From the IMG/VR virus record IMGVR_UViG_3300027816_000055: a DNA stretch of 64,000 nt; one strand, given 5' to 3'. This DNA comes from a virus. Shown here piece after piece: positions 3,678-58,657 of this stretch. The first letter of the stretch is position 1, and the number at the start of each line of letters is the position of its first letter. Under the pieces are notes generated by a model that saw only the letters and a program-made list of their open reading frames with translations, was not told the DNA's origin and did no database searches. Made by a program: the position numbers and the translations under genes.

Positions 3678-3689
3678 TATTTATTATAT

Positions 3690-6002: not shown

Positions 6003-6004
6003 TT

Positions 6005-6301
6005 ATGAATCGATATTCTGTGGCAAAAATTGATACTCGTTTTGATGGTAAACGTGTATATAAAAGTGTATTATATCCATCGATTTCAGTTGATAGTTCT
6101 GATTTTTATATTGTAACCAATGAAACTATGTATCTTGACACACTTGCATACAAATACTATAATGACACAAGTTTATGGTGGATTATAGCATTAGCAAATA
6201 ATATTGGTAAAGGTCGTTTGAGTGTACCTGCTGGATTACAATTAAGAATACCGGGCAATGTAATAAAAATCATCAACGATTATAATCTCATTAATTCATA
6301 A
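6005..6301 (+). CDS. LysM-type baseplate wedge protein (P2 gpX / T4 gp53-like)
   Basis: 'LDTLAYKYYNDTSLWWIIALANNI...GLQLRIP' LysM-like signature. Confidence 0.75.
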   Translation: MNRYSVAKIDTRFDGKRVYKSVLYPSISVDSSDFYIVTNETMYLDTLAYKYYNDTSLWWIIALANNIGKGRLSVPAGLQLRIPGNVIKIINDYNLINS

Positions 6302-6304
6302 GTT

Positions 6305-23162: not shown

Positions 23163-23856
23163 TAAACAAATCGTTATAGGTGTAGGCGGCGTTGCAAGAG
23201 CAGGTAAAAATCTGTTTTGTGATTTGCTGGTTAAACAACTCAAACAACAATATAATTTACATGCACAGCATTATGCGCTGGCATATGAATTGAAAATGGA
23301 TTGTCGGCAATTCATTTGGGATAAATTCAATATTGATGTCTTTACAGAAAATACTGATGAAAAAAAGATATTTCGTGATATGTTGGTTTGGTATGGAGAT
23401 GCTAAACGAAAGCAAAGCAATGGTCGCTATTGGATTGATAAGTTAAATACCAGAATTGGAAAAGAATTTGCATGGGGCACTCCACCTATTGATGTTGCCA
23501 TTATTAGTGATATTCGATATGACTTTTATGAGAATGACGAAGTGGATTTTATTCGTAAAGAAAAGAACGGACCATTTATTCATATAAGCAAATACACATA
23601 TGGATTTCCAACTGATGGACGCGTAGTAAAAGTAAGCGGACAAACTGTAAACAATACTAAAATATTTACAGATCCAGCAAATAGTCATGAAGCATTAAAT
23701 GATCCTAAGTTACAGAAAAAGGCAGACTATTTATTACAGTGGGAAGATATTGGTGTTGGCAAAAATCTGACTTATGCAGAGTTGTTAGATAATCAATATC
23801 TAAATAACACTGTTATAGAATGTCTCAAGTCAATACAACACAAGATTATCCAATAA
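23155..23856 (+). CDS. Deoxynucleoside monophosphate kinase (T4 gp1-like)
   Basis: N-terminal P-loop 'GVGGVARAGKN', 'IISDIRY...NE'. Confidence 0.65.
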   Translation: MNNKQIVIGVGGVARAGKNLFCDLLVKQLKQQYNLHAQHYALAYELKMDCRQFIWDKFNIDVFTENTDEKKIFRDMLVWYGDAKRKQSNGRYWIDKLNTRIGKEFAWGTPPIDVAIISDIRYDFYENDEVDFIRKEKNGPFIHISKYTYGFPTDGRVVKVSGQTVNNTKIFTDPANSHEALNDPKLQKKADYLLQWEDIGVGKNLTYAELLDNQYLNNTVIECLKSIQHKIIQ

Positions 23857-24554
23857 AGCTGATTGAATGCAAACAATCGTCTGAATTTAAATTATTTAGA
23901 GATACTATTGATCAGCATCATAGTTACGTAAAATATAAAGATAGTCCAACTCGCCGCTTGTCATTTCTCGTTTATGAGAGTGTAAGCGGCAATTTTATTG
24001 GTTGTATAGGATTGACCAGCGGCACATTGGCATTGAAATGTAGAGAAGAATATATTGGATGGAACAATGATCTTAAAATGAAACATTTGCATCAAATTGC
24101 AAATAATAGTCGGTTTTGTTTAATCAAAAACAATATCACAATAGCTAATGCTGCCAGCATGACTCTCAAATCATTACGAACAATAGGTGTTGACGCATGG
24201 AAAACAAAATATAACGATGATTTGGTGCTTTTGGAGACTTTTATACTACCCACCAGAGAAAACCAATATATAGGGCATTCTAATCGAAATGGAGCGTGTT
24301 ATAAAGCTGACAACTGGATCGAATTGGGTATGACTGAAGGTAATTCAATAAAAAAGATACCTTTGATTATGTGGAAGAAAGAAAACACTGAACGTGGTAG
24401 ATTAGCCAGAGAGAATCCAGAAGAATGTATGCGGCAGTATGCGTTTTATGTCAATAACAGCGAAAAGTATGGGTACAACGTACAAAACACACAAAAGAAG
24501 CTGGTTTTTATAAAACCATTGGTAAAAAATTGGAGAGATATATTATTAACGTGA
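23820..24554 (+). CDS. DUF4338 / Druantia DruA-like protein
   Basis: 'HHSY', 'IGCIGL', 'REEYIGW', 'IANNSRFCL', 'NAAS', 'WKTKYNDDLVLLETF', 'GACYKADNWIELGMTEG'. Confidence 0.7.
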   Translation: MSQVNTTQDYPIKLIECKQSSEFKLFRDTIDQHHSYVKYKDSPTRRLSFLVYESVSGNFIGCIGLTSGTLALKCREEYIGWNNDLKMKHLHQIANNSRFCLIKNNITIANAASMTLKSLRTIGVDAWKTKYNDDLVLLETFILPTRENQYIGHSNRNGACYKADNWIELGMTEGNSIKKIPLIMWKKENTERGRLARENPEECMRQYAFYVNNSEKYGYNVQNTQKKLVFIKPLVKNWRDILLT

Positions 24555-26738: not shown

Positions 26739-27446
26739 TTATTTTTTTATAATATAACATCCAGTAGGAAATCCAGAATCATCAAACGTATACTTACTAT
26801 TTAAATATAATTTGTCATGTGTTATAGGATGTAAGATATAATAATCAATATTATATTTTGTAAAAAATGTTTTGATTGCGTCTAAGCTTTCAGTTAAATT
26901 CGAATCATCAAAAATAATACATCCACCGGGCTGAACTTTATTATACATTTCATCTAATACTTCTAAAGTCGCAGAAAATGAATCCACATCAATTCTAAGT
27001 AACGCTAATTTTTCAATATTAGCACTGGGTAATGTGTCTTTTACAAATCCTTTTAAAAACGTAATTCTGGAATTATTTTGCAATCCATATTTTTCAAAAT
27101 TAAATTTTACTTCTTCTAAACTAATTCCCATTGGGCCATTTGCACAATGAGTATAAGCAGGAGTATGTCGTTCATTTAAATATTTATATCTTGCCATTTC
27201 AAGCGGTTGAAATCCTTGAAATGAATCGCTTACCCAAATATTTCTATCATTAAACAAATAACTTAAAAATATTGAAACTCCACCTCTCCAAACTCCACAT
27301 TCTAATATATCACCTTCAATTAATGAAATTTGCGGATATAAAGTTAAAATAGTTTTCATTATATTTGGATGTACCATAGTTATATTATTTAGGTAGAGAT
27401 CATTAATTAATTCTTCGTAACTGTTTATTTTTTTTGTAATAGTCAT
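26739..27446 (-). CDS. TylF/MycF-family O-methyltransferase
   Basis: 'GDILECGVWRGG', 'SDSFQG', 'LKGFVKDTLP', 'LRIDVD', 'GCIIFDD'. Confidence 0.85.
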   Translation of the reverse strand: MTITKKINSYEELINDLYLNNITMVHPNIMKTILTLYPQISLIEGDILECGVWRGGVSIFLSYLFNDRNIWVSDSFQGFQPLEMARYKYLNERHTPAYTHCANGPMGISLEEVKFNFEKYGLQNNSRITFLKGFVKDTLPSANIEKLALLRIDVDSFSATLEVLDEMYNKVQPGGCIIFDDSNLTESLDAIKTFFTKYNIDYYILHPITHDKLYLNSKYTFDDSGFPTGCYIIKK

Positions 27447-27448: not shown

Positions 27449-28444
27449 TTATTTAATTTTCCAATAAGAATAAATTCCTTTATCTAACTCAAATCGATCC
27501 CATTCAAATCGTTTTCTAGGTGGTTGTTGTTTTGCCCAATTCCACATAGTAGTTATTCCTTGTTCCAATGTATGATTTTCTTCATAACCAAGAATGTCCA
27601 CTGATTTTTGCCATGTCACATATGCATTCTTTACTTCATGACGTGCTTCTTTAAAAGCAATATCTCCTCCACCAACAACTTTTTGCAAAATTTCGCATGC
27701 ATCTTTGATACGGGTATGATGTTTACCCCCAACGTTCACAATTTGCTTTGATGCACCGGGGAGAACGGCGGCATTCCAAAATGCAGGTAAACTATCATCT
27801 ATGAAGCTAAAAGCTCTAGTTTGTAAGCCGTCGCCAAATATAGTCATAGGTTCATTATTCATATATTGATACATCCAAATACCAAGAACATTACGATATT
27901 TATCCCAAATGTTTTGCTTTGCCCCATATACATTGTGTGGACGTAAAATACACCAGTCAAGTCCATGTTGTTCTCCTGCTATTTTGATATCTAATTCACA
28001 TGCATACTTACTAACTCCATATGGATCGACCGGGCAAGGTATTAATGTTTCGTCAAATGGAGGATTTTGATCACCATAAACTGCTAATGTAGAAGTAAAT
28101 ATTAGTCGTTTTACAGAAAATTTGATGCAATTATTTACTATATCTGAAGTTGCGACCAAGTTGTTTTGATAATTATATTTTCTGATGAATGGACTTAAAC
28201 ATTCAGCCGCATATGCTGCAAAATGAAATACATATTCTGGTTGATATTGTTGAAAAATATCTTCGATATACGAAGTACCTAATTGTCTAGTAAATAACAA
28301 TACTTTTTTATTGACATTCTCAATATATCCACCGCTGAAATCATCTATTCCAATTACTTTATAATCTGGATGATTTTCAACAATATAATCTGCTAAACGA
28401 CTTCCTAATAAACCTCCTACACCTGTAATAATAATGCTTTTCAT
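27449..28444 (-). CDS. NAD-dependent nucleotide-sugar epimerase/dehydratase (extended SDR)
   Basis: 'ITGVGGLLGS', 'HFAA', 'TSTLAVYG', 'YGVSK', 'RPHNVYG'. Confidence 0.88.
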   Translation of the reverse strand: MKSIIITGVGGLLGSRLADYIVENHPDYKVIGIDDFSGGYIENVNKKVLLFTRQLGTSYIEDIFQQYQPEYVFHFAAYAAECLSPFIRKYNYQNNLVATSDIVNNCIKFSVKRLIFTSTLAVYGDQNPPFDETLIPCPVDPYGVSKYACELDIKIAGEQHGLDWCILRPHNVYGAKQNIWDKYRNVLGIWMYQYMNNEPMTIFGDGLQTRAFSFIDDSLPAFWNAAVLPGASKQIVNVGGKHHTRIKDACEILQKVVGGGDIAFKEARHEVKNAYVTWQKSVDILGYEENHTLEQGITTMWNWAKQQPPRKRFEWDRFELDKGIYSYWKIK

Positions 28445-28514: not shown

Positions 28515-29654
28515 TTATTTTTTTCTCTGAATAATTGTTAATCCGTTGTTATTATCAAATTTTTCTAATAATTCCCATGTGTCGCTATTATTTTGTAAAA
28601 ATTCTTGTATTGCTGGCCAAATTCCACGCCCTGATATGTTTGAAAGAGTTTCTGAGTGTTCTGATGTCAATGGTTCGTCTCTAAATGCATATGTTGTCGT
28701 GTCATGAAAAACAATATATTTATTTACTTTATTTGCATGTAATGCAAGTTCATTTTTAACTTGTTCATACGTATGCCATGTATCAAGAAACAACAAATCA
28801 GTTTGTTCAATGTCTATTTTTAGTACATCAGCTTCTACAAATGTAAAATCAAGATTATAATAAGCGGCAACGTCAAAAACATTTTGAATGTTTCCTCCCC
28901 ATCTTGAAGGATTGTGTAAATCGTAACTGATTAATTTTTTTGGAGCAGACCCTAAAAATGCCCATGTCGATTGTACTGCACGGACACCCATTTCTGTAAT
29001 ATGACTACACTCGGATGCGTATTTTATGAGAGTTGGAATATGTTCGTTGATGTCAGATGGAGTCGAATAAATCGTATTAATTATATTTTCTAAATTATAC
29101 ATAGTTTTGTTTTTTATGTTATCTATAGTTTTAAATAGCAAGCTAAAATTATTAGAGCACAATAATGGTGATATTTCATCCACATATTTTTCTTCCAATT
29201 CCCACCATTTGTATTTTAATAATTTATCAATTATATCTTTTTCAAATCTGTACTTTATTAGTTTGGCAGGATTTCCACCAACAACTGTATATGGTGGAAC
29301 ATCTTTAGTTACTACCGAATTACATGCGATACATGCGCCATCTCCAATTGTAACTCCACTCATAATTGTTACATGAGTTCCTATCCAAACATCGTTGCCT
29401 ATCTTTACATTTCCTTTGGTACTCGGATGTCCTTGTCCGTTATACTTTTTAAATGTATCAGTAGCTACATGTCCAAATGGATATGTAGTAGCCCAATCGA
29501 TTCGATGATTTCCTCCTAAATATACTAAAATATGCCCTGAGATTGAACAATAATCGCCTATATCAAGCCATGTATTTTCTCCCCAATAATAAATTTCAAT
29601 ATTTTGATGTCCGTATGTGTGTTTTCCCACACTTCTAATACGATGTGTATTCAT
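28515..29654 (-). CDS. Fusion: hexapeptide (CatB/Vat-like) acetyltransferase + class I SAM methyltransferase
   Basis: N-term 'IGDYCSIS', 'IGNDVWIG', '[14 protein letters not shown]'; C-term 'ITEMGVR', 'DLLFLDTWH', 'IVFHDT', 'NNGLTII'. Confidence 0.8.
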
Positions 29655-30595
29655 AAAATTTTATTTTGTTTTGCATAAGATACCCAACGTGTTAAATACT
29701 CGCCGATATTCTTTTCAATTTCAGCACGTTGTTTATTAGCATCTATTTTTGTTTTAATAAATTTTTTATAAGACGTTTTTAATTTGCCATATCCACCGTA
29801 TTCAATGTCATTTTTTAATACTCCGGTGTCGTAAAACCATATCAATTGATTTTCTAATAAATATTCGCATACATTTACACCGTTGTCTTTTGCATATTGA
29901 CATACATGTAATGAGTATAAATCCCATGGTCCGTATCCATGCCATTCATCCAAAATAGGCACAAACTTTTCAATAAAATTTTTGTTATATAAATCAAACC
30001 ATCCTGCAAATTTAAAATTATTTAATTTTCTGATTGCAGGTTCTGCCGTTAAATTTACAAACTGATGTTCTATTTCGTGTATGTCAATATCTATACATTT
30101 GGATGTTGGTATTGTATTTAAAAACGCCGGATGTACTAATTCATCCCAGCTATTATCCCAGCATTTAAATATCTGTGGAGTAATCAAATAATAATCATCA
30201 GTAATTGTTTTTGCAGCAGCTATCAAATAAAAAATCAAATGTTCATGAAAACTAATATCTGGACAAATATAAACGTATGCGTCTATATGAGATTCAATGG
30301 CTTCTTTTTGTAAATCAAGATGGCCATATACAGCATTCCCATCATAAATTTTAGATCTAATTGTTGTTTTAGTTTTTAACATTTCAATGATTACATTGTA
30401 TTTTTCTATAAAAAAATCTTTTTTTAATATTGAACTGTCCCAGTCTATAATACTAGAAGACAAATTTAATACCATATCTATGTAAATATGGTCTGTATTT
30501 TCTATGTAATAGAGGCTTTTTTTTAATTTATCAGCAAGTAATAGAGCATGATCAATTTCCCAAGGCATGAAATGTGTAATAATTTTAATATTCAT
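29651..30595 (-). CDS. Putative glycosyltransferase-like protein
   Basis: 314 aa; '[10 protein letters not shown]'; coupled within the sugar operon. Confidence 0.4.
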
Positions 30596-31412
30596 ATAAT
30601 TTTGTATAACAATTATTTATTCCATTAAATAACCCAGTCAATTGCAAATTTAAAGATTTTAGTTTTGTTCCGTCGCCTGTATAAGATAAATCCATGCCTG
30701 TATTCAACACATTAATTTTAATTTTTTTACCTGACAAGTTATTAATATAAGTTGCTAATTCAGATAATTTGTATTTATTTTCATATACCATATTAATGTC
30801 ATTTGTATAAATTGACTGATTTAATATAAATTCGACGATTTTTGATAAATCGTCTGTGTAAATAAAATCCATATATCTATCTTTATGGATAATCATTTCC
30901 GTATTATTAATATATGCATTGATGTTATTTTTTATGAATCTTGATTGAAGTTCATTATAATTAAAACAGCCAAATAATCTTAAATTTGTTCCATTATTTT
31001 GAAGTACGCTTTTTGCTATAATGTTTTTTGAAAGTCCATAAAAGTCAGTCGGCACATTACTAAACAGTTGCTCTTCATTATATTGATTAATATCATTGCG
31101 GCGATCAAATTCAGCACCCGATGCAATATTAATAAAATGTTTTACCCTATATCTAAAATGAATAAGATTTTCATACATCAATAAATTGTTATAAAACACT
31201 GAGGCGGGATCGACTGCTGTTCGATTGCCTCCTTCTATTGCACAATGAATTATACTGTCAATTTTATTTTCATTTAGATATTTTTCAATACTAGAAATTG
31301 AATACAAATCAATTGTTTGTCTAGTTCCTCTAAAAAAACAAAATTTGTTGGATAGCATATTTATTATATTCGATCCAACAAATCCGTTAGCTCCTGTTAT
31401 TAAAACATTCAT
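30585..31412 (-). CDS. NAD-dependent sugar epimerase/reductase (extended SDR)
   Basis: 'VLITGANGFVGS', 'INIASGAE', 'YGLSK', 'LRLFG'. Confidence 0.85.
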   Translation of the reverse strand: MNVLITGANGFVGSNIINMLSNKFCFFRGTRQTIDLYSISSIEKYLNENKIDSIIHCAIEGGNRTAVDPASVFYNNLLMYENLIHFRYRVKHFINIASGAEFDRRNDINQYNEEQLFSNVPTDFYGLSKNIIAKSVLQNNGTNLRLFGCFNYNELQSRFIKNNINAYINNTEMIIHKDRYMDFIYTDDLSKIVEFILNQSIYTNDINMVYENKYKLSELATYINNLSGKKIKINVLNTGMDLSYTGDGTKLKSLNLQLTGLFNGINNCYTKLYEY

Positions 31413-32338
31413 TCAGTCCAATAAAGTGATTTTTTTATCGATGCTAATTCTTCTAGTTTAATAGGATAAATATATTCTTCGGATGGATATACTTTTCCCT
31501 TTACCTCGTTATAGTAATTTTTCAAGGCAATTTGCATTAGTCGCAATACACCATCATTGCGTGTATCGATTCCATATTTCTTGACATTTTGTTGAGTTGC
31601 TAATTCTGTTTGTAAAGTATTTAATGCTTCTGGTATATAGCATTTTGCAAACCATGGTCTAAAATTTGGATAGAATCCGGCCAAATCATGCATAATAATT
31701 AATTGACCATCTACATTTTTACCAGCACCAATTCCCATAACTGGAATTTTTAACTTTTTAGCAATTTGTTGTGCAACTGCATCTGGAACAGCTTCTAATA
31801 ATAACATAGAACATCCAGCTTTTTCAATTTCTATACTATCTTCCATCATTTCTTCAAAGCTTTCCACTGTTTTTCCTTGAACTCGGTATCCTCCAAACGA
31901 CACTGTACTTTGAGGAGTTAATCCTAAATGTCCGATAACAAGAATTCCTGCATCAACAATTGCTTTAATTTTATCAGCAACACGTTTTCCGCCTTCCAAT
32001 TTGATTGCATCACATGTGGCTTCTTTTGCAAATCGGATCGCATTTTTTACAGCTTCTTCTTTTGAAATTTCATATGCTCCCTGTGGCATGTCTCCGACAA
32101 TAAATGTATTTGGAGCACCGCGACGAACTGCTTTAGCAAAACTAATCATTTCATCCATAGTTACTGGATTAGTTGTTTGATAACCCAATTCTACCATTCC
32201 ACCAGAGTCTCCAACCAATATCATTTCGATACCAGCATTTTCAACTGCATTTGCAAATGGATAGCTATAGGCAGTAACCCATGTAATAGGTTCACCTGCT
32301 TGTTTCATTTTGTTAAAATTAATAATTGATTTTTTCAT
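31409..32338 (-). CDS. panB: Ketopantoate (3-methyl-2-oxobutanoate) hydroxymethyltransferase
   Basis: 'VTAYSY', 'LVGDS', 'VGDMP', 'IKLEGG', 'GHLGLTPQS', 'LLEAVP', 'GIGAG..DGQ..HD'. Confidence 0.92.
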   Translation of the reverse strand: MKKSIINFNKMKQAGEPITWVTAYSYPFANAVENAGIEMILVGDSGGMVELGYQTTNPVTMDEMISFAKAVRRGAPNTFIVGDMPQGAYEISKEEAVKNAIRFAKEATCDAIKLEGGKRVADKIKAIVDAGILVIGHLGLTPQSTVSFGGYRVQGKTVESFEEMMEDSIEIEKAGCSMLLLEAVPDAVAQQIAKKLKIPVMGIGAGKNVDGQLIIMHDLAGFYPNFRPWFAKCYIPEALNTLQTELATQQNVKKYGIDTRNDGVLRLMQIALKNYYNEVKGKVYPSEEYIYPIKLEELASIKKSLYWTE

Positions 32339-33090
32339 AAATATTTTTCAGCTTTTAGTTCTTCATCTGACAAAAACGGATACATATCGTCCAATCCACA
32401 TTGTATTGATTGTCCTGTATTTTTATCTTTCTTAAGCATTAATGTAGGCACAATTTCTTGCTCTTCTTTACATATTACCTCGCATATAATGCCTGTTTTT
32501 TTATTTAAGATATTTTTTAAATTTTTTTTCAATTCTTGATTTGAAGTAATTTTACTATACTCCATTTCATATGTTTCTGCAACATTTTTTAATTCAGGAA
32601 ACCATAATCCGTGATTGCTATCAGTACCATATACACGCCCTTCATAAAACTTTTTCTGTGTGTTTTTGATGCTTAAATAACCGCTATTATTCCAGACAAA
32701 TATTTTGATCGGCAAATTTAAATATTTAATTGTGGCTAATTCTTGTATATTGGTATTGAAACTTCCATCTCCAGTAATCACTACAACGTTTTTTGTAGGA
32801 TCTGCTAACTTTACTCCGATAGATGCTGGTAATGCAAATCCCATATCTGCCTGTGCGCCAGATAATACAAATATCTGATTATCAATCATTTTTAAATTTT
32901 GACTAGGCACATAAATTGCACTTCCCGCATCGGACACAATTGTATCAGACGCCGACATGACATCATTTAATGTTTCAATAAAGGTATACAAATTTATACC
33001 ATTTGTATCGTCTTTATAAGATTCTTCGTAAATAGGCCATTTATTTTTCCAATATTTACATTTTTCTATCCATTTTTCTTTATTTGTCAT
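32335..33090 (-). CDS. TPP-dependent enzyme (AHAS/YerE-like), C-terminal PP domain
   Basis: 'VSDAGS', 'MGFALPASIG', TPP motif 'GDGSFNTNIQEL...VWNN', 'YLSI'. Confidence 0.88.
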   Translation of the reverse strand: MTNKEKWIEKCKYWKNKWPIYEESYKDDTNGINLYTFIETLNDVMSASDTIVSDAGSAIYVPSQNLKMIDNQIFVLSGAQADMGFALPASIGVKLADPTKNVVVITGDGSFNTNIQELATIKYLNLPIKIFVWNNSGYLSIKNTQKKFYEGRVYGTDSNHGLWFPELKNVAETYEMEYSKITSNQELKKNLKNILNKKTGIICEVICKEEQEIVPTLMLKKDKNTGQSIQCGLDDMYPFLSDEELKAEKYL

Positions 33091-34096
33091 AGTTTAAAAA
33101 ATAATTTAAATCGGCATTAATATACTTATCAATTTTTATTGTGTTCTTTCTGTGTTCGTTATCATCAATATCGACCATGATTTTATATGAATGTGGGGAA
33201 AATAATTTTTCATCATATCCAGTGTGAGAGCAATTAAGAGAGCATCCTAAAATAAGCAATAAATTACAATTTTGTATTGCAAAATTACCTGCTCGGCTGC
33301 CTTTAATACCGATTGTTCCTAAATGTAATGGATGTCTATGACCTAAAATATCAATTCCCAAATATGAAGTAACTGTAGGAATTTGATGCTTTTCTACGAA
33401 ACGTTTAAATAATTGTTTAGAATTGCTTAATGTTATACCATATCCTGCTAAAATAAGTGGACGATCATACGATTCAATTATTGGAAGTAAATTTTTTATG
33501 GTAATTGACGAGTTGTTCAATGTTGACTCTGGTATAAATGATTTGCATTGTGTTATGTCAATTTCCGCGTGTTGAATATCGCTCGGTATATCTAACCACA
33601 CTGGTCCCATACGTCCCGATAAAGCGATATGAATAGCTTTATCTAATTCGTATGGAACATCAGTTGCATTTTCAACCATTATTGCATATTTTGTCAATGA
33701 CTTGACTGTATCAATGATATTATGTTCTTGAATTCCATATTTTCTAATAGATACGTTTTTTTCTCTGTTAATAAATAAACTAGTTTGTGTTTTTTTAACA
33801 TTTCCAGATAAAAATAAAACGGGTAAGCTATCTTGCCATGCATCCAACAATGATGTAATACAATTGGTTCCACCACATCCGGTTGTAGGATTAACTACTG
33901 ATAATTTGTTTGTTACTTTACTCTCACCAACGGCAGCATGTCCTGCTCCTTGTTCATTATGAAAACAAATATAACTTATTTGTTTTTCTTTAATAAATCC
34001 GTCATTAAGCCCTGCTGCTCCACCACCCATTAATCCATATACGTATTTAATTCCAATTTTTGCCAAACGTTGTGCTATATAGTCTGATACTCTCAT
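33080..34096 (-). CDS. TPP-dependent enzyme (AHAS/YerE-like), N-terminal PYR + middle domain
   Basis: 'VYGLMGG', 'HNEQGAGHAA', 'TTGCGGTN', 'GPVWLDIPSD', 'RPLILAG'. Confidence 0.88.
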   Translation of the reverse strand: MRVSDYIAQRLAKIGIKYVYGLMGGGAAGLNDGFIKEKQISYICFHNEQGAGHAAVGESKVTNKLSVVNPTTGCGGTNCITSLLDAWQDSLPVLFLSGNVKKTQTSLFINREKNVSIRKYGIQEHNIIDTVKSLTKYAIMVENATDVPYELDKAIHIALSGRMGPVWLDIPSDIQHAEIDITQCKSFIPESTLNNSSITIKNLLPIIESYDRPLILAGYGITLSNSKQLFKRFVEKHQIPTVTSYLGIDILGHRHPLHLGTIGIKGSRAGNFAIQNCNLLLILGCSLNCSHTGYDEKLFSPHSYKIMVDIDDNEHRKNTIKIDKYINADLNYFLNYDK

Positions 34097-34105
34097 AAAT
34101 TATAA

Positions 34106-35065
34106 TTACCAAATAAAATTATTTCTATAATAAGATACAATATCTTTTATTTCTACATCAAAATTACATTTTGGTGTCCATCCTAAATTACGTAATTTAA
34201 AATCATTTAACGCGTATCTTACATCCTGACCTGCGCGATGAAAACAAAAATCGATGTATTCCTCTTTATAATTAGGTTGAAATTCTTGAAAATACGCAGT
34301 TATAATTTTTTCAACCGTTATTATATTAGATTGTTCAAATCCACCAGCAATATTATAAATTTCATTTTTTACACCAGCGTCTATGATTGTAATAATACCG
34401 TCTGCTGTATCTTTTGCATGTAACCAATTACGAATTGGTGTTCCATTATTATGCAAAGGAATTTTTCTATTAAGCTTTAAAAACTTACATGTCTTCGGAA
34501 TCAATTTTTCAACATATTGACCGATACCATAATTATTCGTAGGTCTTACAATAACATATGGAATTCCATATGTTCGTGCCCATGCTATTATTAATTGGTC
34601 AGCCGCTGCTTTTGTAGCACTATATGGATTGCTCGGTTTTAAAATATCTGTTTCAATATGTTCTCCATCAACAATATCTCCATATACTTCATCTGTGCTG
34701 AATTGAATTAATGTAGGAGTAATATGACCAGTACTTTTATAGTGCTTTAACAATTCGAGAATATTATATACTCCATCAATATTTGAATGAATGAAATCGT
34801 CGCTTTTACGTATTGAATTATCAACGTGCGTTTCTGCGGCAACATTAATAAAATAATCACAGTCAATTAGACGATCTATATTACAGATATCTTGTTTTTC
34901 AAAATGAAAACGGTCTGTTGATTCGAATTCTTTAATTAAATTTGGATCAGCTGCATATGTAATTTTATCAATTCCTTTTACATACCATCCTTTATTTAAA
35001 CATGCACGGGTTACATATGAACCGATAAATCCTAAACATCCTGTTATATAAACTATTTTAGACAT
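34106..35065 (-). CDS. rfbB: NDP-glucose 4,6-dehydratase (RmlB/RfbB type)
   Basis: 'ITGCLGFIGS', 'DKITYA', 'AAETHVDNSI', 'STDEVYG', 'YSATKAA', 'RNWLH'; start at ATG 35065. Confidence 0.9.
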   Translation of the reverse strand: MSKIVYITGCLGFIGSYVTRACLNKGWYVKGIDKITYAADPNLIKEFESTDRFHFEKQDICNIDRLIDCDYFINVAAETHVDNSIRKSDDFIHSNIDGVYNILELLKHYKSTGHITPTLIQFSTDEVYGDIVDGEHIETDILKPSNPYSATKAAADQLIIAWARTYGIPYVIVRPTNNYGIGQYVEKLIPKTCKFLKLNRKIPLHNNGTPIRNWLHAKDTADGIITIIDAGVKNEIYNIAGGFEQSNIITVEKIITAYFQEFQPNYKEEYIDFCFHRAGQDVRYALNDFKLRNLGWTPKCNFDVEIKDIVSYYRNNFIW

Positions 35066-35066
35066 A

Positions 35067-36383
35067 TTATATTGTTTTAAAAAATTTTTCAATAATCGTT
35101 TGAATATACATAATTTGTTCAGACGATATTACTGGACTTGTTCCTAAAAAGAAACTATCCGTCGTGACTTTTCTAGCATTAGGATATTTGTTAATAACAT
35201 CCTGTTTATCCATAATTCCAGAATAAGCTGGTTGTAGCATAATATTACCCGCAAAATATGGGCGGGTTTGAATTTTGTTATCTTCCAAATAATTAATAAT
35301 ATCTTTTCTTTTAAAATTATTATTGTTTTTAATTGTCAATGGAAATGCAAACCAACTAGGATCTGCATGTTCTGTTGCTTTTGGTAGAATGAAAAACTCT
35401 TCGTATGGTTTGAATATATCAAACAATTGTTTAAAGTTTGATTTACGTCTAGCATGTATTTCCGGCAGCTTTTTAATTTGTTCTAAACCAATTGATGCTT
35501 GTAATTCAATTGGCTTTAAATTATATCCAATTTCGTCATACACATATTTGTGATCAAATATTTCATCTGGTAATTCTGGTAGCCAATTACTAAATCGATT
35601 TCCACAGCTTCCGTTTTTTAGTTTATTTGCTTTTAAGCCCACACAATAACATCCGCGACCCCATTCACGAAAACTACGTGTAACTATTTCTTGTATTTTT
35701 GTATTACATGCTACAAATCCACCTTCACCCATCGTCATGTGATGCGCTGGATAAAAACTACAACTAGCTAACTCACCGAAACTGCCAAGTGGCTTGTTAT
35801 TATATGTTGATCCAAGTGCATCGCAACAATCCTCTAACAAAATTAAATTATATTGTTTTATGATTTCCATCAATCGATTCATGTTCGGCGGATTACCTAA
35901 AACGTGTGCAAATGTTATAACTTTTGCGCCTTTTTTTGCTTGTTCTTCTACTTGATCAAGATTTAAATTTAATGTGTCCAAGTCAATATCAACAAATAAA
36001 GGTTCGAATCCAACTTGAAAAATTGGATTTAATGTTGTAGGAAACCCAGCAATTGGGGTAATTACTTTTGTTCCTTTTGGTAAATTGTATAATCTTTTTG
36101 ATGTCATTGCTAACATCATCAATAAATTAGAACTACTTCCACTATTTGTTAATATTCCATATTCTTTACCTACTAATAATGGAAATTTATTTTCAAATGT
36201 GATTGCATCTTGCCCTAATACTAACCATTCATTCAACAATGAATTAATTGCAGCAATATATTCTTTCTCGTCGAAAAATGGTCCTGCATATTGCACCCAA
36301 TCTTTACCAGCTTCCCATTTTTTAGATGCGTGTTTTTCATTAATATATTCTTTAATTTTATTTAAAATTTCTATCATTTCCAT
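35067..36383 (-). CDS. rfbH: NDP-4-keto-6-deoxyglucose 3-dehydrase (E1; DdhC/RfbH/AscC family)
   Basis: 'NSGSSSNL', 'EDCCDALG', 'SFYPAHHMTMGEGG' (His in place of the aminotransferase Lys), 'WGRGCYC', 'YFAGN'; start at 36383 or 36377. Confidence 0.9.
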   Translation of the reverse strand: MEMIEILNKIKEYINEKHASKKWEAGKDWVQYAGPFFDEKEYIAAINSLLNEWLVLGQDAITFENKFPLLVGKEYGILTNSGSSSNLLMMLAMTSKRLYNLPKGTKVITPIAGFPTTLNPIFQVGFEPLFVDIDLDTLNLNLDQVEEQAKKGAKVITFAHVLGNPPNMNRLMEIIKQYNLILLEDCCDALGSTYNNKPLGSFGELASCSFYPAHHMTMGEGGFVACNTKIQEIVTRSFREWGRGCYCVGLKANKLKNGSCGNRFSNWLPELPDEIFDHKYVYDEIGYNLKPIELQASIGLEQIKKLPEIHARRKSNFKQLFDIFKPYEEFFILPKATEHADPSWFAFPLTIKNNNNFKRKDIINYLEDNKIQTRPYFAGNIMLQPAYSGIMDKQDVINKYPNARKVTTDSFFLGTSPVISSEQIMYIQTIIEKFFKTI

Positions 36384-36412
36384 AATATAATACGTTAGAT
36401 TCAATATGTCAA
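36384..36412 (-). promoter_or_regulatory. Internal sigma70-type promoter heading the rfbH sub-operon
   Basis: Minus strand TTGACA(36412-36407)-17 nt-TATATT(36389-36384); second ATG at 36377 is 6 nt downstream. Confidence 0.6.
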
Positions 36413-36421: not shown

Positions 36422-37465
36422 TTATATCGTATTTTTTATATTTTCAATCATATATTCAATTTCATTTATTTTCCAAGGATAATTATTATCGTCTGTTTGT
36501 TTTTCACTTGATATAATCTCTCCGAAATCTTCAATTGTTACGAGATTTGATTTGCTTAATGAAGCAAATTCTTTACATTTTGGAGTAAGCCACCAATTCA
36601 TTTTTGGATGTTCTATCAAATAATGTGTTGTATGCTTACTTGAAAATAGAATACCGATCACGGATGCACTTGATTGTTGTACTATTGTTTTATATGATTT
36701 AAAAATTTGAATTTTTTGTGCCATATTAAAATCCATTAACTCAATAATATCATAATTGTTACGTTTAAAGCCATCGATAAGATCAAGTTCATTTATTAAT
36801 ATTCTATTATGATACCATCCACGTTTAATAGTATCCTGTCTTGAAATATACACAGATTTATTTAAATAATTTTCATTAATTGGAATATTATCTATAACCT
36901 TTCTCATCATTTTATAAATAATATTATATCCAAATGGTTGTGGAAAATTATAAAATGAATTTGGTACTATTAAATTTTTAAATTTATATCGTTTATCATG
37001 GTCGATAACATAAATATTAATATTTGGATAATACAATTGCATCCACTCTTTTATAAAAGTTGCGCGGCCTGTATTATGATATAACTCAGCGGGAATGTAT
37101 AATTTAATATTCGTCTGTTTTATCAATTCATCGTAATAATGACATTTACCAAAAAAACAAAAGAAAAAATGAATATAATTTAGTCCAGCAGGATCTTGTA
37201 ATAAAAACGACGGTTCATCAACTAACACGTCATAGGATTCATTACTATTAACAATATTGTTGTCATATAGTAATCTATGATCACCAATCATTTGTGTATG
37301 TTTGTCGATGCCACCTATTACTTTCTTGTGATTATGAAATACTTCTAAATTACAGTCCTCACCTCTCGGGTGCAAAATATAAATATTCTTATATTCAATG
37401 CAAAACTCACGGTTTTTGTTTATAGTTGATTCGGGAATATCGAAAAAAAGAATACGTGAACTCAT
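36422..37465 (-). CDS. Glycosyltransferase family 61 (DUF563-like)
   Basis: 'VYISRQD...RILINE...QKIQIFKS..TIV..S.A' pattern. Confidence 0.65.
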   Translation of the reverse strand: MSSRILFFDIPESTINKNREFCIEYKNIYILHPRGEDCNLEVFHNHKKVIGGIDKHTQMIGDHRLLYDNNIVNSNESYDVLVDEPSFLLQDPAGLNYIHFFFCFFGKCHYYDELIKQTNIKLYIPAELYHNTGRATFIKEWMQLYYPNINIYVIDHDKRYKFKNLIVPNSFYNFPQPFGYNIIYKMMRKVIDNIPINENYLNKSVYISRQDTIKRGWYHNRILINELDLIDGFKRNNYDIIELMDFNMAQKIQIFKSYKTIVQQSSASVIGILFSSKHTTHYLIEHPKMNWWLTPKCKEFASLSKSNLVTIEDFGEIISSEKQTDDNNYPWKINEIEYMIENIKNTI

Positions 37466-39324
37466 ATTAAATAATGTATTAAATTGTAATAATCTTCACA
37501 CTTTGCATCATTATGCAGTGGTATTAATGTGAATAATAAACTCGCCGTCAATGCTTTCAAATGCTTTAATTGTTCTGTTCCATGCAACTCTACAAAACAC
37601 TTTTCAAAATAAGAAATTAATGGAGAACAATATGAAAAAGATATTGGTTTTGAATTTAAAATAAAATCATATCCAATTAGAGATTGATATATTTTTGCAT
37701 AATCATAAAAAGAATCGCCGTAAATTGTATATGTATTTCCTAACTTTCCGCGCATATCTATAAATTGTAAACTATTATTTTTTACAAATATATTTGAAAA
37801 TACACAATCTCCATGAATTAATGATAAATTACCTCCATTCATTTTTTCATAATTAAAAAGTTTTTCTTTAAGAGAATTGAAAACAATGTTTGAATTTTTA
37901 AATTTAGTGTAATTATAATTATCAAATCTGGATATCAGTTTATTGTAATAATTATCATAAATATTGTTGTTAAACTGATCTGGAACAATTGAGTGTAGTT
38001 GCTTTAGTGATTTGAATAACAAATCGATATGAGTGGTTGTAAGCTCTTTGTGAGCATACATTGTAGAAAACAATGTTCCATCAATCTTTTCAATTTCTAA
38101 TTCGTTTTCACCATTTGTTGAGATTAACTTTGGAAATAGATGTGAAACTATATTTGGTATATTTTTGTAATAATAAATTTCACCACTCAACGATTTTGTT
38201 GATGTTTTAACAATGCTATTTTCTTTAACTTGAATTTGATTATAAGAACGAGGAGTAACTGAATTAATGTAAAATCCGGTAGATTTTTCAAGATTTGCAC
38301 GGGCATTGATTGCTAAATCATCAATATAAAAATCTGCATGCGGCTTTCCAAAACATAATTCATCGTACTGTATGTTATATTTTTCTAGTGTATTAAAAGT
38401 AATAATTCCCACGTCCTTTAAAATTTTAGACACATTTCCACTATAAGTTCTCATTCGCCGTGCCGTGTAAATTATAATATAATGACCTTGGTTTTTCAAA
38501 TGATTAAGAAAGTCAATATTTTTTTGTATTGGCTCAACCGTTGTATAATCATCTGTTTTTTGAGGATATGTAACTAATGTATTATCCAAATCAAAACAAA
38601 AGCGTAATTGTTTTTGTGTAGAATTTTGGCTGCAAAAATCCATTACTTGTAATGGAGTGCCCAAACATACATAATTATTTTTTTCAATATATTTTCCGAC
38701 AACATATTGTTTATCTTCAATCATCTTTTGATATACATGTGAAATGTAAATTTCGTTCAATGTCTGATCACATTTCATTGCGTATGATTGAAATAATTTC
38801 GCATTTTTAAATACATAACAACCAATATTTGCGTTGTCTGAAATCTTTACTTTTTCTTTGATATCAATAATTTGATTTTCGTTTAGTTTAATATAACTGA
38901 ATAGTGGAGTTGGTGTCTTATCGATTGTATAATAAATTTCATTATTTGAAGAATCTCTATCAAATTTGTTGTTTTTGATAAATGAATCTCCATCATGAAT
39001 AATTATTTTTTCATCCAAAATATGGTCGGGTAGTTTAGACAATCCGTACAAAATTGTTTCCACAGGTCCAGAAGTTTGATACGGCAACTTGATGAAATTA
39101 AACTTTATATTTTTATATTCTTTTTGAAGAATGTCTTGAAAGTTATAATGATCTAAAATATAATTATATATAATAGTAACACAATCATCAGTTGAAATAT
39201 TTAACGAATCAATGACCCATGTAATGATTGGCTTTCCCAAGACATTTGTTAATATTTTTGGAAAATGGTAGTCTTCAGATTTGAATCTTTCTCCTTTTCC
39301 ACCTAACGGTATAACAATATTCAT
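37462..39324 (-). CDS. Three-domain fusion: nucleotidyltransferase + HAD phosphatase (capsule-biosynthesis type) + APH/choline-kinase-like domain
   Basis: 'IVIPLGGKGERF'; 'FCFDLDNTL', 'KPHADFYIDDLA'; 'LIHGDCVFSNI', 'FIDMRG'. Confidence 0.8.
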   Translation of the reverse strand: MNIVIPLGGKGERFKSEDYHFPKILTNVLGKPIITWVIDSLNISTDDCVTIIYNYILDHYNFQDILQKEYKNIKFNFIKLPYQTSGPVETILYGLSKLPDHILDEKIIIHDGDSFIKNNKFDRDSSNNEIYYTIDKTPTPLFSYIKLNENQIIDIKEKVKISDNANIGCYVFKNAKLFQSYAMKCDQTLNEIYISHVYQKMIEDKQYVVGKYIEKNNYVCLGTPLQVMDFCSQNSTQKQLRFCFDLDNTLVTYPQKTDDYTTVEPIQKNIDFLNHLKNQGHYIIIYTARRMRTYSGNVSKILKDVGIITFNTLEKYNIQYDELCFGKPHADFYIDDLAINARANLEKSTGFYINSVTPRSYNQIQVKENSIVKTSTKSLSGEIYYYKNIPNIVSHLFPKLISTNGENELEIEKIDGTLFSTMYAHKELTTTHIDLLFKSLKQLHSIVPDQFNNNIYDNYYNKLISRFDNYNYTKFKNSNIVFNSLKEKLFNYEKMNGGNLSLIHGDCVFSNIFVKNNSLQFIDMRGKLGNTYTIYGDSFYDYAKIYQSLIGYDFILNSKPISFSYCSPLISYFEKCFVELHGTEQLKHLKALTASLLFTLIPLHNDAKCEDYYNLIHYLI

Positions 39325-39325
39325 A

Positions 39326-40000
39326 TTATAATTTAAATCCAAAATTTTCTTCTTGTGAAAAAATTGCATTATATTTCAAATTGGTCGCAATTTGTTTTTC
39401 AATAGTTTTATTGTGATGTAATGCAAATTCGTATTCATATGGCAAGTGGCTATATGTTTTTGCACCTTCAATTTTTTCATGCAATCTACGCTCCCATTTC
39501 ATATATGAAACATTTTTAAAAAGACGCCCTTGCGGATCTGGCCAATTAACAATCAATCTGTTTTCAAATGGAGTTAATCTCCAACCCCATTGTTTTGCAT
39601 TATCTGGATTTACACCTATAAAATCATTAATACGAGGAATCCAATATAAATCTATATCAGGATTTGTGTCTAATATAAGTTTGATGTTTTCCAATAAAAA
39701 TATAGATGGTAATTCATCAGCATCAATTTGGAATATGTATTTTCCTTTACACAATGATTTACCATAATTTTTATGTTCGCTATAGTTTTTATTTAGCGCA
39801 TGTTTATGTAACTGAAAAAAGCCGCCACCTGTATTTACTGCGTCTTGCAATATTTGAACAGTGGCGGCATCATCACTATAATCATCAAGTATTATACATT
39901 CGCCGTCGTCTTTGTATTTAAAAAGACGTTCCAATAAAGGTTTTATTTGCATACCTTCATTCTTGCATGTTACTAAATATGATACAAATGGTAATGACAT
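39326..40000 (-). CDS. Glycosyltransferase family 2
   Basis: 'SYLVTCKNE', 'ILDDYSDD', 'FQIDADE', 'WPDPQGRLF', 'LHE'. Confidence 0.8.
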   Translation of the reverse strand: MSLPFVSYLVTCKNEGMQIKPLLERLFKYKDDGECIILDDYSDDAATVQILQDAVNTGGGFFQLHKHALNKNYSEHKNYGKSLCKGKYIFQIDADELPSIFLLENIKLILDTNPDIDLYWIPRINDFIGVNPDNAKQWGWRLTPFENRLIVNWPDPQGRLFKNVSYMKWERRLHEKIEGAKTYSHLPYEYEFALHHNKTIEKQIATNLKYNAIFSQEENFGFKL

Positions 40001-40561: not shown

Positions 40562-41863
40562 TTATTTATTCAATTTAGGTAATTTAAGTTTTGGTAATAC
40601 AATTTTCTTTTCAATTGCAAATTCTGGAACATATTTGTCTAAATATGCATGTAAAATTTTATCAGTTGCTTCCATACTAAATCTTTCCATATTTTCAATG
40701 CGTAGCTTTTCCGCATTCTCTTTGATAGATGGCGCCGGACTGTAAAATATTGTCTTGAATCGTTCTTCAGCAAGACCGTAAGCAACAGAGAACCAACTAC
40801 TTTCTTTAATAAGCCATTGATTAGAAGATGCTGGATCAACCTGCTTTATGGTTCCTTGCAATAACTGTGCATACTTCGGGTTCAAGAAATCAAGATGACC
40901 ACTCCAATTACTTGCCAATATTGGTTTGCCGCTCAAACTTGCAAGTAATAATGGATGTCCATATCCTTCACCGTGTGTAAAACTAACATGTGCTTTAACT
41001 TTTTCATGATTAAACAATGCATTCATTTCTACATCATTAAGTTCACCATGCAAAAGATATACATTTGGTAAATCACCACCAACTTCTTTTTTAATAGCGG
41101 CAATACGTGCCAAACATGCATCTCTATCAGCGATAGAAAAATTAACACCGCTTGTTTTTAAGATCAAACAAGGACGTTCACCTTTTCTGTCTTTGAAAGT
41201 ATTACAGAAGGACTTGATTAAATTACCAATGTCTTTACGATCATTATATAATCCATTTGAGCTTGTCCATTGACCAACAAACAAAAATGCAAAAGTTTCA
41301 GGAATATTGCTTAATGCGGCTTCTACGGTTGCAACTTTTTCATCTGTTTTCTTAAATACTTTGATGTCTGCACCCCAAGGGGTAACTTCCATAGGCTTAT
41401 TTACTACTAATGGTTCATTACGACCATCTGGCAAAGTCTTGACAAAGTTTGCTTTTTGAAATACTTCTTTTGAAAATGTACTAGTTACAAAGTTAACATT
41501 CATTTTATTTAATCCTTCAATCCACTCACCCGGTGGGATCGTTGTTTCAATACCGGCAGTCATACCAATATTGTATTTAGCAGGAGTTTGAAATTCATTT
41601 GGAATTGTCATTTGAATGAATACTTCTGGTTGTTTTTGTAAAGGGGATCGTAAAATACGATTTCCTAATTCTATTGCTTCATGATCATTCGGATCAATAT
41701 CCGCAACGTTTAGTTTACGCGGAGTTCCACCCCATGGAGTCGGCACAACAAGTAGATCAAATTTGTTATATCTTAACAAACTTTTACCAACTGCCATTGC
41801 CCATTCACCGTAACCACTGCGAGTAAAAATAGGACTTTGAAATACACAAACTGGTTTGCTCAT
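40562..41863 (-). CDS. GT-B glycosyltransferase (GT4-like)
   Basis: 'SGYG', 'FLFVGQW', 'VSFTHGEGYGHPLLLA', 'NWSGHLDF'. Confidence 0.8.
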   Translation of the reverse strand: MSKPVCVFQSPIFTRSGYGEWAMAVGKSLLRYNKFDLLVVPTPWGGTPRKLNVADIDPNDHEAIELGNRILRSPLQKQPEVFIQMTIPNEFQTPAKYNIGMTAGIETTIPPGEWIEGLNKMNVNFVTSTFSKEVFQKANFVKTLPDGRNEPLVVNKPMEVTPWGADIKVFKKTDEKVATVEAALSNIPETFAFLFVGQWTSSNGLYNDRKDIGNLIKSFCNTFKDRKGERPCLILKTSGVNFSIADRDACLARIAAIKKEVGGDLPNVYLLHGELNDVEMNALFNHEKVKAHVSFTHGEGYGHPLLLASLSGKPILASNWSGHLDFLNPKYAQLLQGTIKQVDPASSNQWLIKESSWFSVAYGLAEERFKTIFYSPAPSIKENAEKLRIENMERFSMEATDKILHAYLDKYVPEFAIEKKIVLPKLKLPKLNK

Positions 41864-42573
41864 AGATTATTTTCTCTTTCTTTCATTAAATCACTATACT
41901 TCTTTTCTGGAGTATACACAGGATTTTTTTTGTAATTTTTAATCATATCAACCAATGTTTCATCGGGAACAATTGGAGTAGATGTTACATCAGTGCTGCC
42001 AAAACCACCTTCGCCACGTTGTGTTTTATCTAGTGCATCCACCAAATAAAACTCAGCATGTTCAACTTTGGTAATTTTCAATTGACAAATTTTGTCACCT
42101 TTCTTGTAGATCTTATCAAGATTAGGTTTTCCTGCAACATATTGATACAAAGGCGCACCATCATTTGCAAGTTTAGTGTTAATCAGATAATCTTCTGGTT
42201 GCCAAATATATTTGAAACGTACAAGAATTTCGCCACGATAATCCGCATCAATTAATCCAATACCATTTGCAAGTACAAGATTGTATTTGCTAACACTACT
42301 ACGAGGCATAGCCAATACATCGTAATCAATATTTAATGGACTTGATGTACCTCCAGTCCATACGTTATCTTTTTGAACAGCAATTCGAAGATTAGTTTTG
42401 TACTGAATGTAATCTATACTTTCATATACATTTTTTGATTCTCCGTGTAGTTTACCTACTATTTCAGGATCACTAGTTGCAACAATATCATAACCAGTAG
42501 ATCGTTCGGTTGCCGCGTCTGGCAACGCGGCAACATTATTATATGTTTCGTTTTTTAATACTTCAATTTTCAT
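41860..42573 (-). CDS. dut: Trimeric dUTPase
   Basis: Five motifs: 'STGYDI', 'PRSS', 'GLIDADYRGEI', 'KICQL', 'RGEGGFGST'. Confidence 0.9.
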   Translation of the reverse strand: MKIEVLKNETYNNVAALPDAATERSTGYDIVATSDPEIVGKLHGESKNVYESIDYIQYKTNLRIAVQKDNVWTGGTSSPLNIDYDVLAMPRSSVSKYNLVLANGIGLIDADYRGEILVRFKYIWQPEDYLINTKLANDGAPLYQYVAGKPNLDKIYKKGDKICQLKITKVEHAEFYLVDALDKTQRGEGGFGSTDVTSTPIVPDETLVDMIKNYKKNPVYTPEKKYSDLMKERENNL

Positions 42574-50861: not shown

Positions 50862-51058
50862 AAATGGATAAAAAACTAACTGAGATAGTATCGTATTTTT
50901 CAAAATACGCATGGTATGATAATGCATACGCTACCACATATAAAAATGAATATGTAATCATCGTAAAAAAATATCCTTATAGCGACGATCACTTATTCAG
51001 TGAATACGAAAAAAATAAAAAAGTTAGAATTAGAACACACGTATTGGGAGGAAAATGA
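50858..51058 (+). CDS. Small hypothetical protein
   Basis: ATGA overlap with the clamp-loader stop. Confidence 0.5.
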   Translation: MKMDKKLTEIVSYFSKYAWYDNAYATTYKNEYVIIVKKYPYSDDHLFSEYEKNKKVRIRTHVLGGK

Positions 51059-58580: not shown

Positions 58581-58657
58581 AACTATTCACTTTAGATTCA
58601 ACATTCTATGACAAGTCATTTGAATCTTTTTCTAATTTAAATAAAAAGTATTTTTTA

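Follow-up and report, generated by a model that had tools for sequence, protein, structure and literature searches.

A long-form PanB paralogue beside a split YerE-like carboligase in a T4-like phage: a probable donor-forming enzyme for C4-branched 3,6-dideoxyhexoses

The biosynthesis of C4-branched 3,6-dideoxyhexoses has been drawn together in a unifying scheme, in which a YerE-like enzyme adds a decarboxylated donor to C4 of a nucleoside diphosphate (NDP)-4-keto-3,6-dideoxyhexose, after which a reductase finishes the side chain (Steitz et al. 2022, PMC9306805). In the gene clusters for erwiniose, caryophyllose and gastriose the 2-oxo acid donor is made by an adjacent aldolase, and ErwE was found to accept 4-hydroxy-2-oxobutanoate and to reject pyruvate (PMC9306805). 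The yersiniose A pathway of Yersinia pseudotuberculosis consists of DdhB, E1 (DdhC) with E3, YerE and YerF, and YerE uses pyruvate without a donor-forming enzyme. JanthE of Janthinobacterium sp. HH01 and PpYerE are ketone-accepting YerE-like lyases (PMC12188165, PMC12247030), of which JanthE takes long, branched and hydroxylated 2-oxo acids (PMC12188165). A related gene set is present in a virus, on a stretch of 64,000 nucleotides of IMG/VR record IMGVR_UViG_3300027816_000055 (the window, to which all positions refer). Six coupled genes on its minus strand (30585-36404) encode two NDP-hexose dehydratases, a YerE-like thiamine diphosphate (ThDP)-dependent carboligase split over two open reading frames (ORFs), a small short-chain dehydrogenase/reductase (SDR) and, between carboligase and SDR, a long-form paralogue of the ketopantoate hydroxymethyltransferase (KPHMT) PanB, here named PanB-L. 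It is probable, in our judgement, that this cassette makes an NDP-activated 3,6-dideoxyhexose with a carbon branch at C4, and that PanB-L supplies the donor of the ThDP enzyme. The genes of the cassette are, in the order of transcription:

35067-36404, minus strand: E1/RfbH-type NDP-4-keto-6-deoxyhexose 3-dehydratase, dependent on pyridoxamine phosphate and a [2Fe-2S] cluster; ORF from TTG 36404, likely start ATG 36383
34106-35092, minus strand: RmlB-like NDP-hexose 4,6-dehydratase (GDP_Man_Dehyd and Epimerase domains); likely start ATG 35065
33080-34096, minus strand: YerE-like ThDP carboligase, N-terminal half with the Pyr and middle domains (TPP_enzyme_N and TPP_enzyme_M)
32335-33090, minus strand: YerE-like ThDP carboligase, C-terminal half with the PP domain (TPP_enzyme_C, GDG...NN motif)
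31409-32338, minus strand: PanB-L, long-form paralogue of KPHMT (TIGR00222, PF02548, 1m3u alignment)
30585-31412, minus strand: short extended SDR of 275 amino acids, RmlD/Fcl-like, with intact GxxGxxG (GANGFVG) and YxxxK (YGLSK) motifs

An earlier reading of the bare sequence (the original prediction) had claimed six tightly coupled genes with these identities. All six ORFs were found and their identities were borne out by profile and structure matches, and the junctions are the short gaps and overlaps described. The likely start of the 4,6-dehydratase lies 1 nt past the E1 stop codon, 9 nt separate the 4,6-dehydratase from the N-terminal ThDP half, the two ThDP halves overlap by 11 nt, and the 4-nt ATGA overlaps of the PanB-L gene with both its neighbours can be read directly in the sequence.

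PanB-L shares the TIM-barrel fold with canonical PanB (E. coli 1m3u, M. tuberculosis 1oy0): the AlphaFold model (pLDDT 92.5), for which 1m3u is the best structural match, gives a TM score of 0.93 when normalised to the target. It scores 284 bits against TIGR00222, where the cut-off is 207.55 and profile positions 1-238 of 264 are covered, and 319 bits against PF02548. The catalytic motifs had been claimed to be complete, and indeed D45, S46, D84, K112, E114, H136 and E181 (E. coli numbering; residues as listed in PMC13488298) as well as four pocket motifs are kept in an alignment with 1m3u. The metal-binding, carboxylate-binding (S46, K112) and base residues are invariant across the PanB-L clade. 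At seven positions, however, the clade departs from canonical PanB as a whole (L47G, F87Q, M88G, V179L, C182A, I212L and V214I; 76 long-form sequences). At canonical L47, F87, M88, I212 and V214, at least 97% of these 76 sequences have G, Q, G, L and I, respectively, compared with seven canonical rows in which F87 and V214 are invariant. L47G, F87Q and M88G sit beside two Mg-binding aspartates, and positions 212 and 214 are substrate-scope hot-spots in engineered KPHMT (PMC7611260; PMC13488298), mutation of I212 shifting the nucleophile scope of the engineered E. coli enzyme (PMC7611260). PanB-L also differs from canonical PanB by an insertion of ~28 residues before the last helix, predicted to form two helices (235-259), and by a tail of ~19 residues.

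The panB equivalog score, which exceeds the trusted cut-off, and the full set of catalytic residues would also be expected if the gene were an auxiliary metabolic one, raising pantothenate and coenzyme A (CoA) synthesis in the host and lying among glycan genes by chance; virome surveys interpret it as such an auxiliary gene (PMC8940887). This explanation is very improbable. Maximum-likelihood analysis places the long form in a separate clade (Shimodaira-Hasegawa-like approximate likelihood ratio test 99), apart from the canonical PanBs that lie beside panC, and does not nest among housekeeping PanBs with panC and panE elsewhere; canonical PanB copies from genomes that also carry PanB-L fall outside the clade. 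In three bacterial genomes in which both forms coexist (G001, G002 and G004) canonical panB is directly beside panC and PanB-L is elsewhere, and two other genomes (G003 and G005) have PanB-L but neither panC nor canonical panB. PanB-L never adjoins panC in the loci examined. The window had been said to lack panC, panD and panE, and none was detected in domain scans of its ~60 ORFs; nor were panC and ApbA-type panE detected in three CheckV-complete phage genomes carrying the PanB-L/ThDP pair. The pocket residues that differ invariantly from canonical PanB, the 4-nt overlaps that couple the gene to both neighbours and a ThDP enzyme adjacent in all 21 viral loci point the same way. The proposal that this PanB does not serve CoA synthesis thus held up, and the comparisons support the view that PanB-L is not a pantothenate gene. 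Matches of PanB and of the ThDP half in a tblastn search of a GenBank-derived collection of 50,697 phage records (H1-H12) were uninformative, being mostly bacterial DNA filed under phage names. The matches to PanB and acetohydroxyacid synthase (AHAS) include OR848172.1, AFYI01000001.1 and MW495066.1; most of them are misfiled, such as UNVERIFIED_ORG Listeria and Staphylococcus 'phage' contigs and Salmonella whole-genome shotgun entries. The panB of Microcystis phage MaAM05, located near panC and sufBCD, is canonical in the tree.

The closest solved relatives of the two ThDP halves are JanthE and PpYerE. The N-terminal half matches JanthE best (8rph, 1e-51) and PpYerE second (5ahk, 9e-48), ahead of every AHAS in the PDB; the C-terminal half also has JanthE 8rph as its best match (2e-36), and no NCBIfam AHAS model reached its cut-off with either half. 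The enzyme has the activating Glu, with an HNEQG motif present, and the canonical GDG, which is kept in 41 of 41 PanB-linked enzymes, whereas JanthE has a CDG motif and is a single chain of 619 amino acids. The four closest viral relatives (loci L001, L014, L020 and L021), which differ in nucleotide sequence, are split at the same place, after the middle domain and before the PP domain, with stop and start codons that overlap. The split is also present in independent ENA gene calls on contigs whose PanB is 91% identical. In more distant relatives the ThDP enzyme is a single chain of ~590 amino acids. Judged from these comparisons, the split is genuine and the enzyme is YerE-like. Here and in the linked loci it clusters with genes for NDP-hexose 4,6-dehydratase and 3-dehydratase. 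The position of JanthE K567 was considered as a marker for donor size and was rejected, since it varies among PanB-linked enzymes (T in 14, K in 9, R in 5, others). On a Bryobacteraceae chromosome (G001:C1:6025276-6027069, locus L059) the ThDP gene linked to PanB continues past a single in-frame TAG, unlike the phage split; it may represent another type of split, or else a pseudogene.

The association of PanB-L with the ThDP enzyme was surveyed in 21 IMG/VR and 56 GTDB loci, a locus being called linked when the two genes lie within 3 kb. The recurrence of panB, yerE-like and rfbH genes, on which the original prediction had made its case depend, was found to be wide: all 21 viral loci and 21 of the 56 prokaryotic loci are linked (13 of 32 when only GTDB loci flanked by 3 kb or more on each side are counted), with 3-dehydratases nearby. 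The linked loci are spread over more than 10 bacterial phyla and Archaea (Bacteroidota, Acidobacteriota, Actinomycetota, Verrucomicrobiota, Elusimicrobiota, candidate phyla radiation (CPR) groups, Thermoplasmatota and others), and in most of them PanB-L directly adjoins the ThDP gene or overlaps it. Beyond the ThDP enzyme only SDRs and a DegT-family enzyme recur as neighbours. In all but two of the linked loci that have it, the DegT-family enzyme has a His at the position of the pyridoxal phosphate (PLP)-binding lysine; about half of these His-type enzymes are E1-type with four Cys, the other half ColD-type without them. A His-type 3-dehydratase near PanB-L indicates a 3-deoxy-4-keto sugar as the acceptor, as for YerE. 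Among bacterial examples, an Algoriphagus contig has the complete gene order: nucleotidyltransferase, 4,6-dehydratase, DegT, ThDP enzyme, PanB-L and SDR, and some other loci add B12-radical S-adenosylmethionine (SAM), SPASM radical-SAM, Zn-dependent alcohol dehydrogenase or methyltransferase genes. Over 41 loci the mean pairwise identity is 62% for PanB-L versus 37% for its ThDP partner. Co-diversification of the two was considered and found to be weak (Spearman 0.39), PanB-L pairing with several ThDP lineages.

The survey also bears on the idea that the hydroxy-2-oxo acid made by PanB-L is not the ThDP donor and becomes, once reduced or activated, an acyl substituent of the glycan or another metabolite, the ThDP enzyme separately making a yersiniose-type acetyl branch. 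PanB-L does occur in ThDP-independent contexts in Acidobacteriota and Spirochaetota, and in the phage a hexapeptide acyltransferase is encoded three genes downstream. The set of conserved neighbours nevertheless contains no ligase, no enzyme activating with CoA or acyl carrier protein and no acyltransferase, only the ThDP enzyme, the SDR and the DegT-type dehydratase, and the close junction with the ThDP gene in most linked loci is likewise at odds with separate roles. We consider this explanation quite unlikely.

The two dehydratases of the cassette would provide the acceptor. E1 scores 467.7 bits against the RfbH equivalog NF011936 of NCBIfam (cut-off 423) and has Yersinia E1 as its best solved structure (3bcx, E 2e-103). 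It keeps the FYPAHH motif, with His for the PLP Lys, and the four Fe-S cysteines (CCCC pattern), the last of which is spaced 5 residues further than in Yersinia E1. The best family for the 4,6-dehydratase is dTDP-glucose 4,6-dehydratase (TIGR01181), with 295 bits and thus below the cut-off of 365, compared to only 68 bits for the CDP-type model TIGR02622. A homologue of the SDR directly follows PanB-L in most linked loci, and a role as side-chain ketoreductase, like that of YerF and ErwF, is proposed for it. With yersiniose A biosynthesis the phage thus has an E1-type 3-dehydratase, a YerE-like enzyme and a side-chain reductase in common, and here too the acceptor is likely to be C4 of a 3,6-dideoxy-4-keto sugar. 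It differs in the PanB paralogue between the ThDP enzyme and the reductase.

Given what the six genes encode, how their linkage is conserved and that PanB-L is a separate paralogue, an order of steps, substrates, a product and a glycan target may be proposed. The 4,6-dehydratase and the Fe-S enzyme E1 would convert an NDP-hexose to NDP-4-keto-3,6-dideoxyhexose, with a reducing partner for E1 presumably supplied by the host. PanB-L, with its intact site for Mg binding and 2-oxo-acid enolisation, would hydroxymethylate a common free 2-oxo acid, for which pyruvate, 2-oxobutyrate and ketoisovalerate are candidates. The two-piece YerE-like enzyme would decarboxylate the product and add the acyl unit to the C4 ketone, the small SDR would reduce the side-chain carbonyl, and a GT-A-like protein encoded directly after the SDR, or another glycosyltransferase (GT), would attach the sugar to a glycan of the phage or of the host. 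Many 2-oxo acids are substrates for the aldolase activity of E. coli KPHMT, and PanB, being a metal-dependent 2-oxo-acid aldolase, fits the slot that the aldolase holds in the unifying scheme (PMC7611260).

The steps could also follow each other differently. The ThDP enzyme would then add an acetyl group derived from pyruvate to C4, and PanB-L would hydroxymethylate the sugar-bound acetyl group, or the keto sugar at C3 or C5, with the alpha-hydroxy-ketone as metal chelator. Steitz et al. raised such an order as an alternative for erwiniose (PMC9306805), pyruvate is preferred by canonical YerE (PMC12247030), and PanB chemistry targets the carbon adjacent to a ketone. Moreover, L47G, F87Q and M88G enlarge the region near the metal ligands and could admit a bulky NDP-sugar. 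Nevertheless, hydroxymethylation of the free 2-oxo acid before branching is favoured, because the metal-binding residues and S46 and K112, which bind the carboxylate of the 2-oxo acid, are invariant in PanB-L, because PanB-L is present in a Terriglobia genome without a YerE-like enzyme (G002), and because sequence conservation is much higher in PanB-L than in its ThDP partner while the scaffold enzymes vary. An identity of ~60-70% among PanB-L enzymes, kept across differing ThDP partners and dehydratase types, is hard to square with recognition of differing NDP-sugars, and ErwE, the tested precedent, does not take pyruvate (PMC9306805). Action of PanB-L after branching is therefore rather unlikely.

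Another possibility is that PanB-L no longer uses methylene-tetrahydrofolate and is a true aldolase, joining a 2-oxo acid to a free aldehyde (formaldehyde, acetaldehyde or glycolaldehyde) to give a longer hydroxylated ThDP donor. E. coli KPHMT works on free formaldehyde and on other aldehydes (PMC7611260), the conserved two-helix insertion is accompanied by changes at the scope positions 212 and 214, and in known clusters the slot is held by aldehyde-using aldolases (PMC9306805). These points are set against the finding that no ErwJ-like aldehyde-generating enzyme is conserved beside PanB-L, and against the undefined folate site of PanB, the loss of which cannot be judged from sequence. We regard a folate-free aldolase as improbable.

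Compared with the clusters of the unifying scheme (ErwI/ErwJ-ErwE-ErwF, MMAR_2331/2332 and MygI/MyGE/MygF; Steitz et al. 2022, PMC9306805), the pathway that may be drawn for the phage has the same logic and a similar gene set: enzymes for NDP-4-keto-3,6-dideoxyhexose, a builder of the 2-oxo acid, a YerE-like carboligase, an NAD(P)H reductase and a glycosyltransferase, in roles that here are predicted. The donor slot differs. In those clusters it holds a pyruvate aldolase of the BphI/HpaI type, in the phage a PanB paralogue, a member of the phosphoenolpyruvate-mutase/isocitrate-lyase superfamily that is probably folate-dependent; PanB-L adjoins the ThDP gene and has fitting predicted chemistry, but is of another family than ErwI and MygI. 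The phage cassette further differs by the split ThDP enzyme, by a 4,6-dehydratase that is RmlB-like and not CDP-type and by its location in a T4-like phage.

Several findings weigh against a dedicated branching pathway with PanB-L as donor-forming enzyme. Its chemistry is read wholly from homology and synteny. The pocket changes of PanB-L mean that its substrate is not readable from canonical PanB and that ketoisovalerate should not be simply assumed; the example of ketopantoate from ketoisovalerate in the original prediction could thus not be upheld, as residues adjacent to the metal ligands and two positions governing nucleophile scope differ invariantly from canonical PanB. Of the prokaryotic PanB-L loci 35 of 56 are unlinked (19 of 32 among those flanked by 3 kb or more on each side). 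The unlinked genes belong mainly to Acidobacteriota and Spirochaetota. This implies that PanB-L has at least one other use and that its product is not necessarily reserved for sugar branching. In the Terriglobia genome mentioned above, the best ThDP match is AHAS-like, with 32% identity. Yersinia E1 works with E3, but no E3 (AscD/DdhD) reductase was detected in domain scans of the window ORFs, and no E3-type FAD_binding_6 protein in the complete phage relatives. For the source phage itself such absences apply to the 64-kb window, while contigs with an identical PanB extend up to 319 kb. Unlinked PanB-L genes (L074:8702-12210, L025, L028, L029 and L039; GTDB Spirochaetota, Elusimicrobiota and Oligoflexia) are often flanked by proteins of ~410-430 amino acids, for which Pfam, NCBIfam and Atlas gave no lead. 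One such family adjoins unlinked PanB-L in 8 loci, and genes for electron transfer flavoprotein alpha and beta are nearby in 5 loci. The unlinked loci may represent a second pathway using PanB-L.

The window belongs to a large T4-like phage, encoding a T4 baseplate protein, gp32, UvsX, clamp loader, DnaB helicase, ribonucleotide reductase and family-B polymerase. Megablast found no match to the region in the collection of 50,697 phage records. The cassette lies within a co-directional minus-strand block of ~20 kb (24823-45418) with ~20 genes, mostly for glycan synthesis. Upstream and downstream of it the following features were annotated:

37462-39369, minus strand: fusion of nucleotidyltransferase and haloacid dehalogenase (HAD)-type phosphatase, 635 amino acids, conserved with the cassette, order kept in L004 and L087
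36422-37465, minus strand: GT61-like glycosyltransferase, conserved with the cassette, order kept in L004 and L087
36384-36412, minus strand: sigma-70-like consensus match TTGACA-17-TATATT (11/12), within the 38-nt gap that follows the GT61 gene
29651-30595, minus strand: protein of 314 amino acids without a family, predicted GT-A-like fold, directly after the SDR and conserved downstream in L004 and L087
28515-29654, minus strand: hexapeptide acyltransferase, 379 amino acids, downstream tailoring gene from profile searches
27449-28444, minus strand: GalE-like SDR, downstream tailoring gene from profile searches
26739-27446, minus strand: TylF-type O-methyltransferase, downstream tailoring gene from profile searches

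A GT2 gene is also located upstream of the cassette. The site at 36412-36384 had been taken for an internal promoter heading the six genes. The 11/12 match exists, but a promoter is not demonstrated by it, because such matches are no more frequent in the AT-rich region than in shuffled sequence (137 observed versus 133 +/- 12) and because the -10 box abuts the likely E1 start codon ATG 36383. The 314-amino-acid protein has no match in Pfam or NCBIfam, and none of its 836 homologues has a name. Its model (pLDDT 94.9) gave GT-A glycosyltransferases as all top Foldseek matches (E ~1e-6, TM 0.40-0.47), and this predicted fold makes it a candidate for transferring the branched sugar. In the hexapeptide acyltransferase, the N-terminal half is similar to xenobiotic acetyltransferases of the Vat/CatB type (151 bits, under the cut-off) and the C-terminal ~200 residues are unmatched; the protein is probably a sugar O-acetyltransferase.

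Elsewhere in the block, a protein of 433 amino acids (40562-41863, minus strand) has no family match, and homologues with 24-32% identity to it are found again close to the cassette in loci L010, L012, L013 and L015. The sole match of a protein of 237 amino acids (41860-42573, minus strand), also inside the glycan block, is a C-terminal dUTPase fragment. Near the polymerase accessory genes a nucleoside 2-deoxyribosyltransferase-like protein is encoded (51055-51594, plus strand), and the latter two proteins may be connected with DNA modification. Beside the glycan block a protein of 244 amino acids (23820-24554, plus strand) matches the Druantia DruA domain PF14236 (E 2e-25). A second glycan block is located on the far side of the polymerase region (51646-59365), with glycosyltransferases of 684 and 401 amino acids, GT25 and GT6 enzymes, and methyltransferases of the FkbM, CmcI and Methyltransf_23 types. 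After a T4 baseplate-like gene come three consecutive large ORFs (824, 770 and 874 amino acids; 1203-8929, plus strand) for which PHROG gave no match at E 1e-5 and which may encode structural or tail-fibre proteins of a new kind.

The interpretation of the cassette as a branched-sugar operon stands in part. PanB remains outside CoA synthesis and its linkage recurs, whereas the promoter and the ketopantoate example are not supported and the claim of novelty has to be scaled down. The phrase 'candidate new sugar pathway' was an overstatement, as the logic is that of the published scheme, only the enzyme in the aldolase slot being another (PMC9306805). On our best reading of the analysis, what appears to be new is the PanB paralogue in that slot; the acyl-branching scheme itself has been published (PMC9306805). 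A literature search revealed no paper linking PanB or KPHMT to YerE-type sugar branching, O-antigen or RfbH, with Krug et al. 2024 (more than 200 YerE-like clusters in silico) and Lanza et al. 2024 lying outside its reach.

A wider hypothesis may be put forward tentatively, with the balance of probability somewhat against it. PanB-L would have an unrecognised activity, acting as hydroxymethyltransferase or aldolase on some 2-oxo acid that is not ketoisovalerate (e.g. converting pyruvate to 4-hydroxy-2-oxobutanoate), and would have spread horizontally among phages, more than 10 bacterial phyla and archaea. Together with YerE-like enzymes it would make a new class of monosaccharides, C4-(1,3-dihydroxyalkyl) 3,6-dideoxyhexoses, displayed on phage or host surfaces, it would supply a second pathway in Acidobacteriota and Spirochaetota, and most 'pantoate transferase' genes of marine viromes would be glycan genes.

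The proposal that PanB-L supplies the ThDP donor lends itself to a direct test, for which two or three recombinant proteins would suffice, and the PanB-L/YerE-like pair is of biocatalytic interest, its predicted activity being the formation of tertiary alcohols from functionalised 2-oxo acids. If true, it would add a new donor-making route to ThDP-dependent sugar branching and probably an undescribed branched monosaccharide, and a core vitamin-pathway enzyme family would have a widespread paralogue with a different role. In an oxygen-minimum-zone virome 'pantoate transferase' was the most abundant vitamin-related auxiliary gene and was interpreted as boosting CoA (PMC8940887). This label of viral ecology would then be corrected, as the 'pantothenate' gene of ocean viromes may often be a glycan gene.

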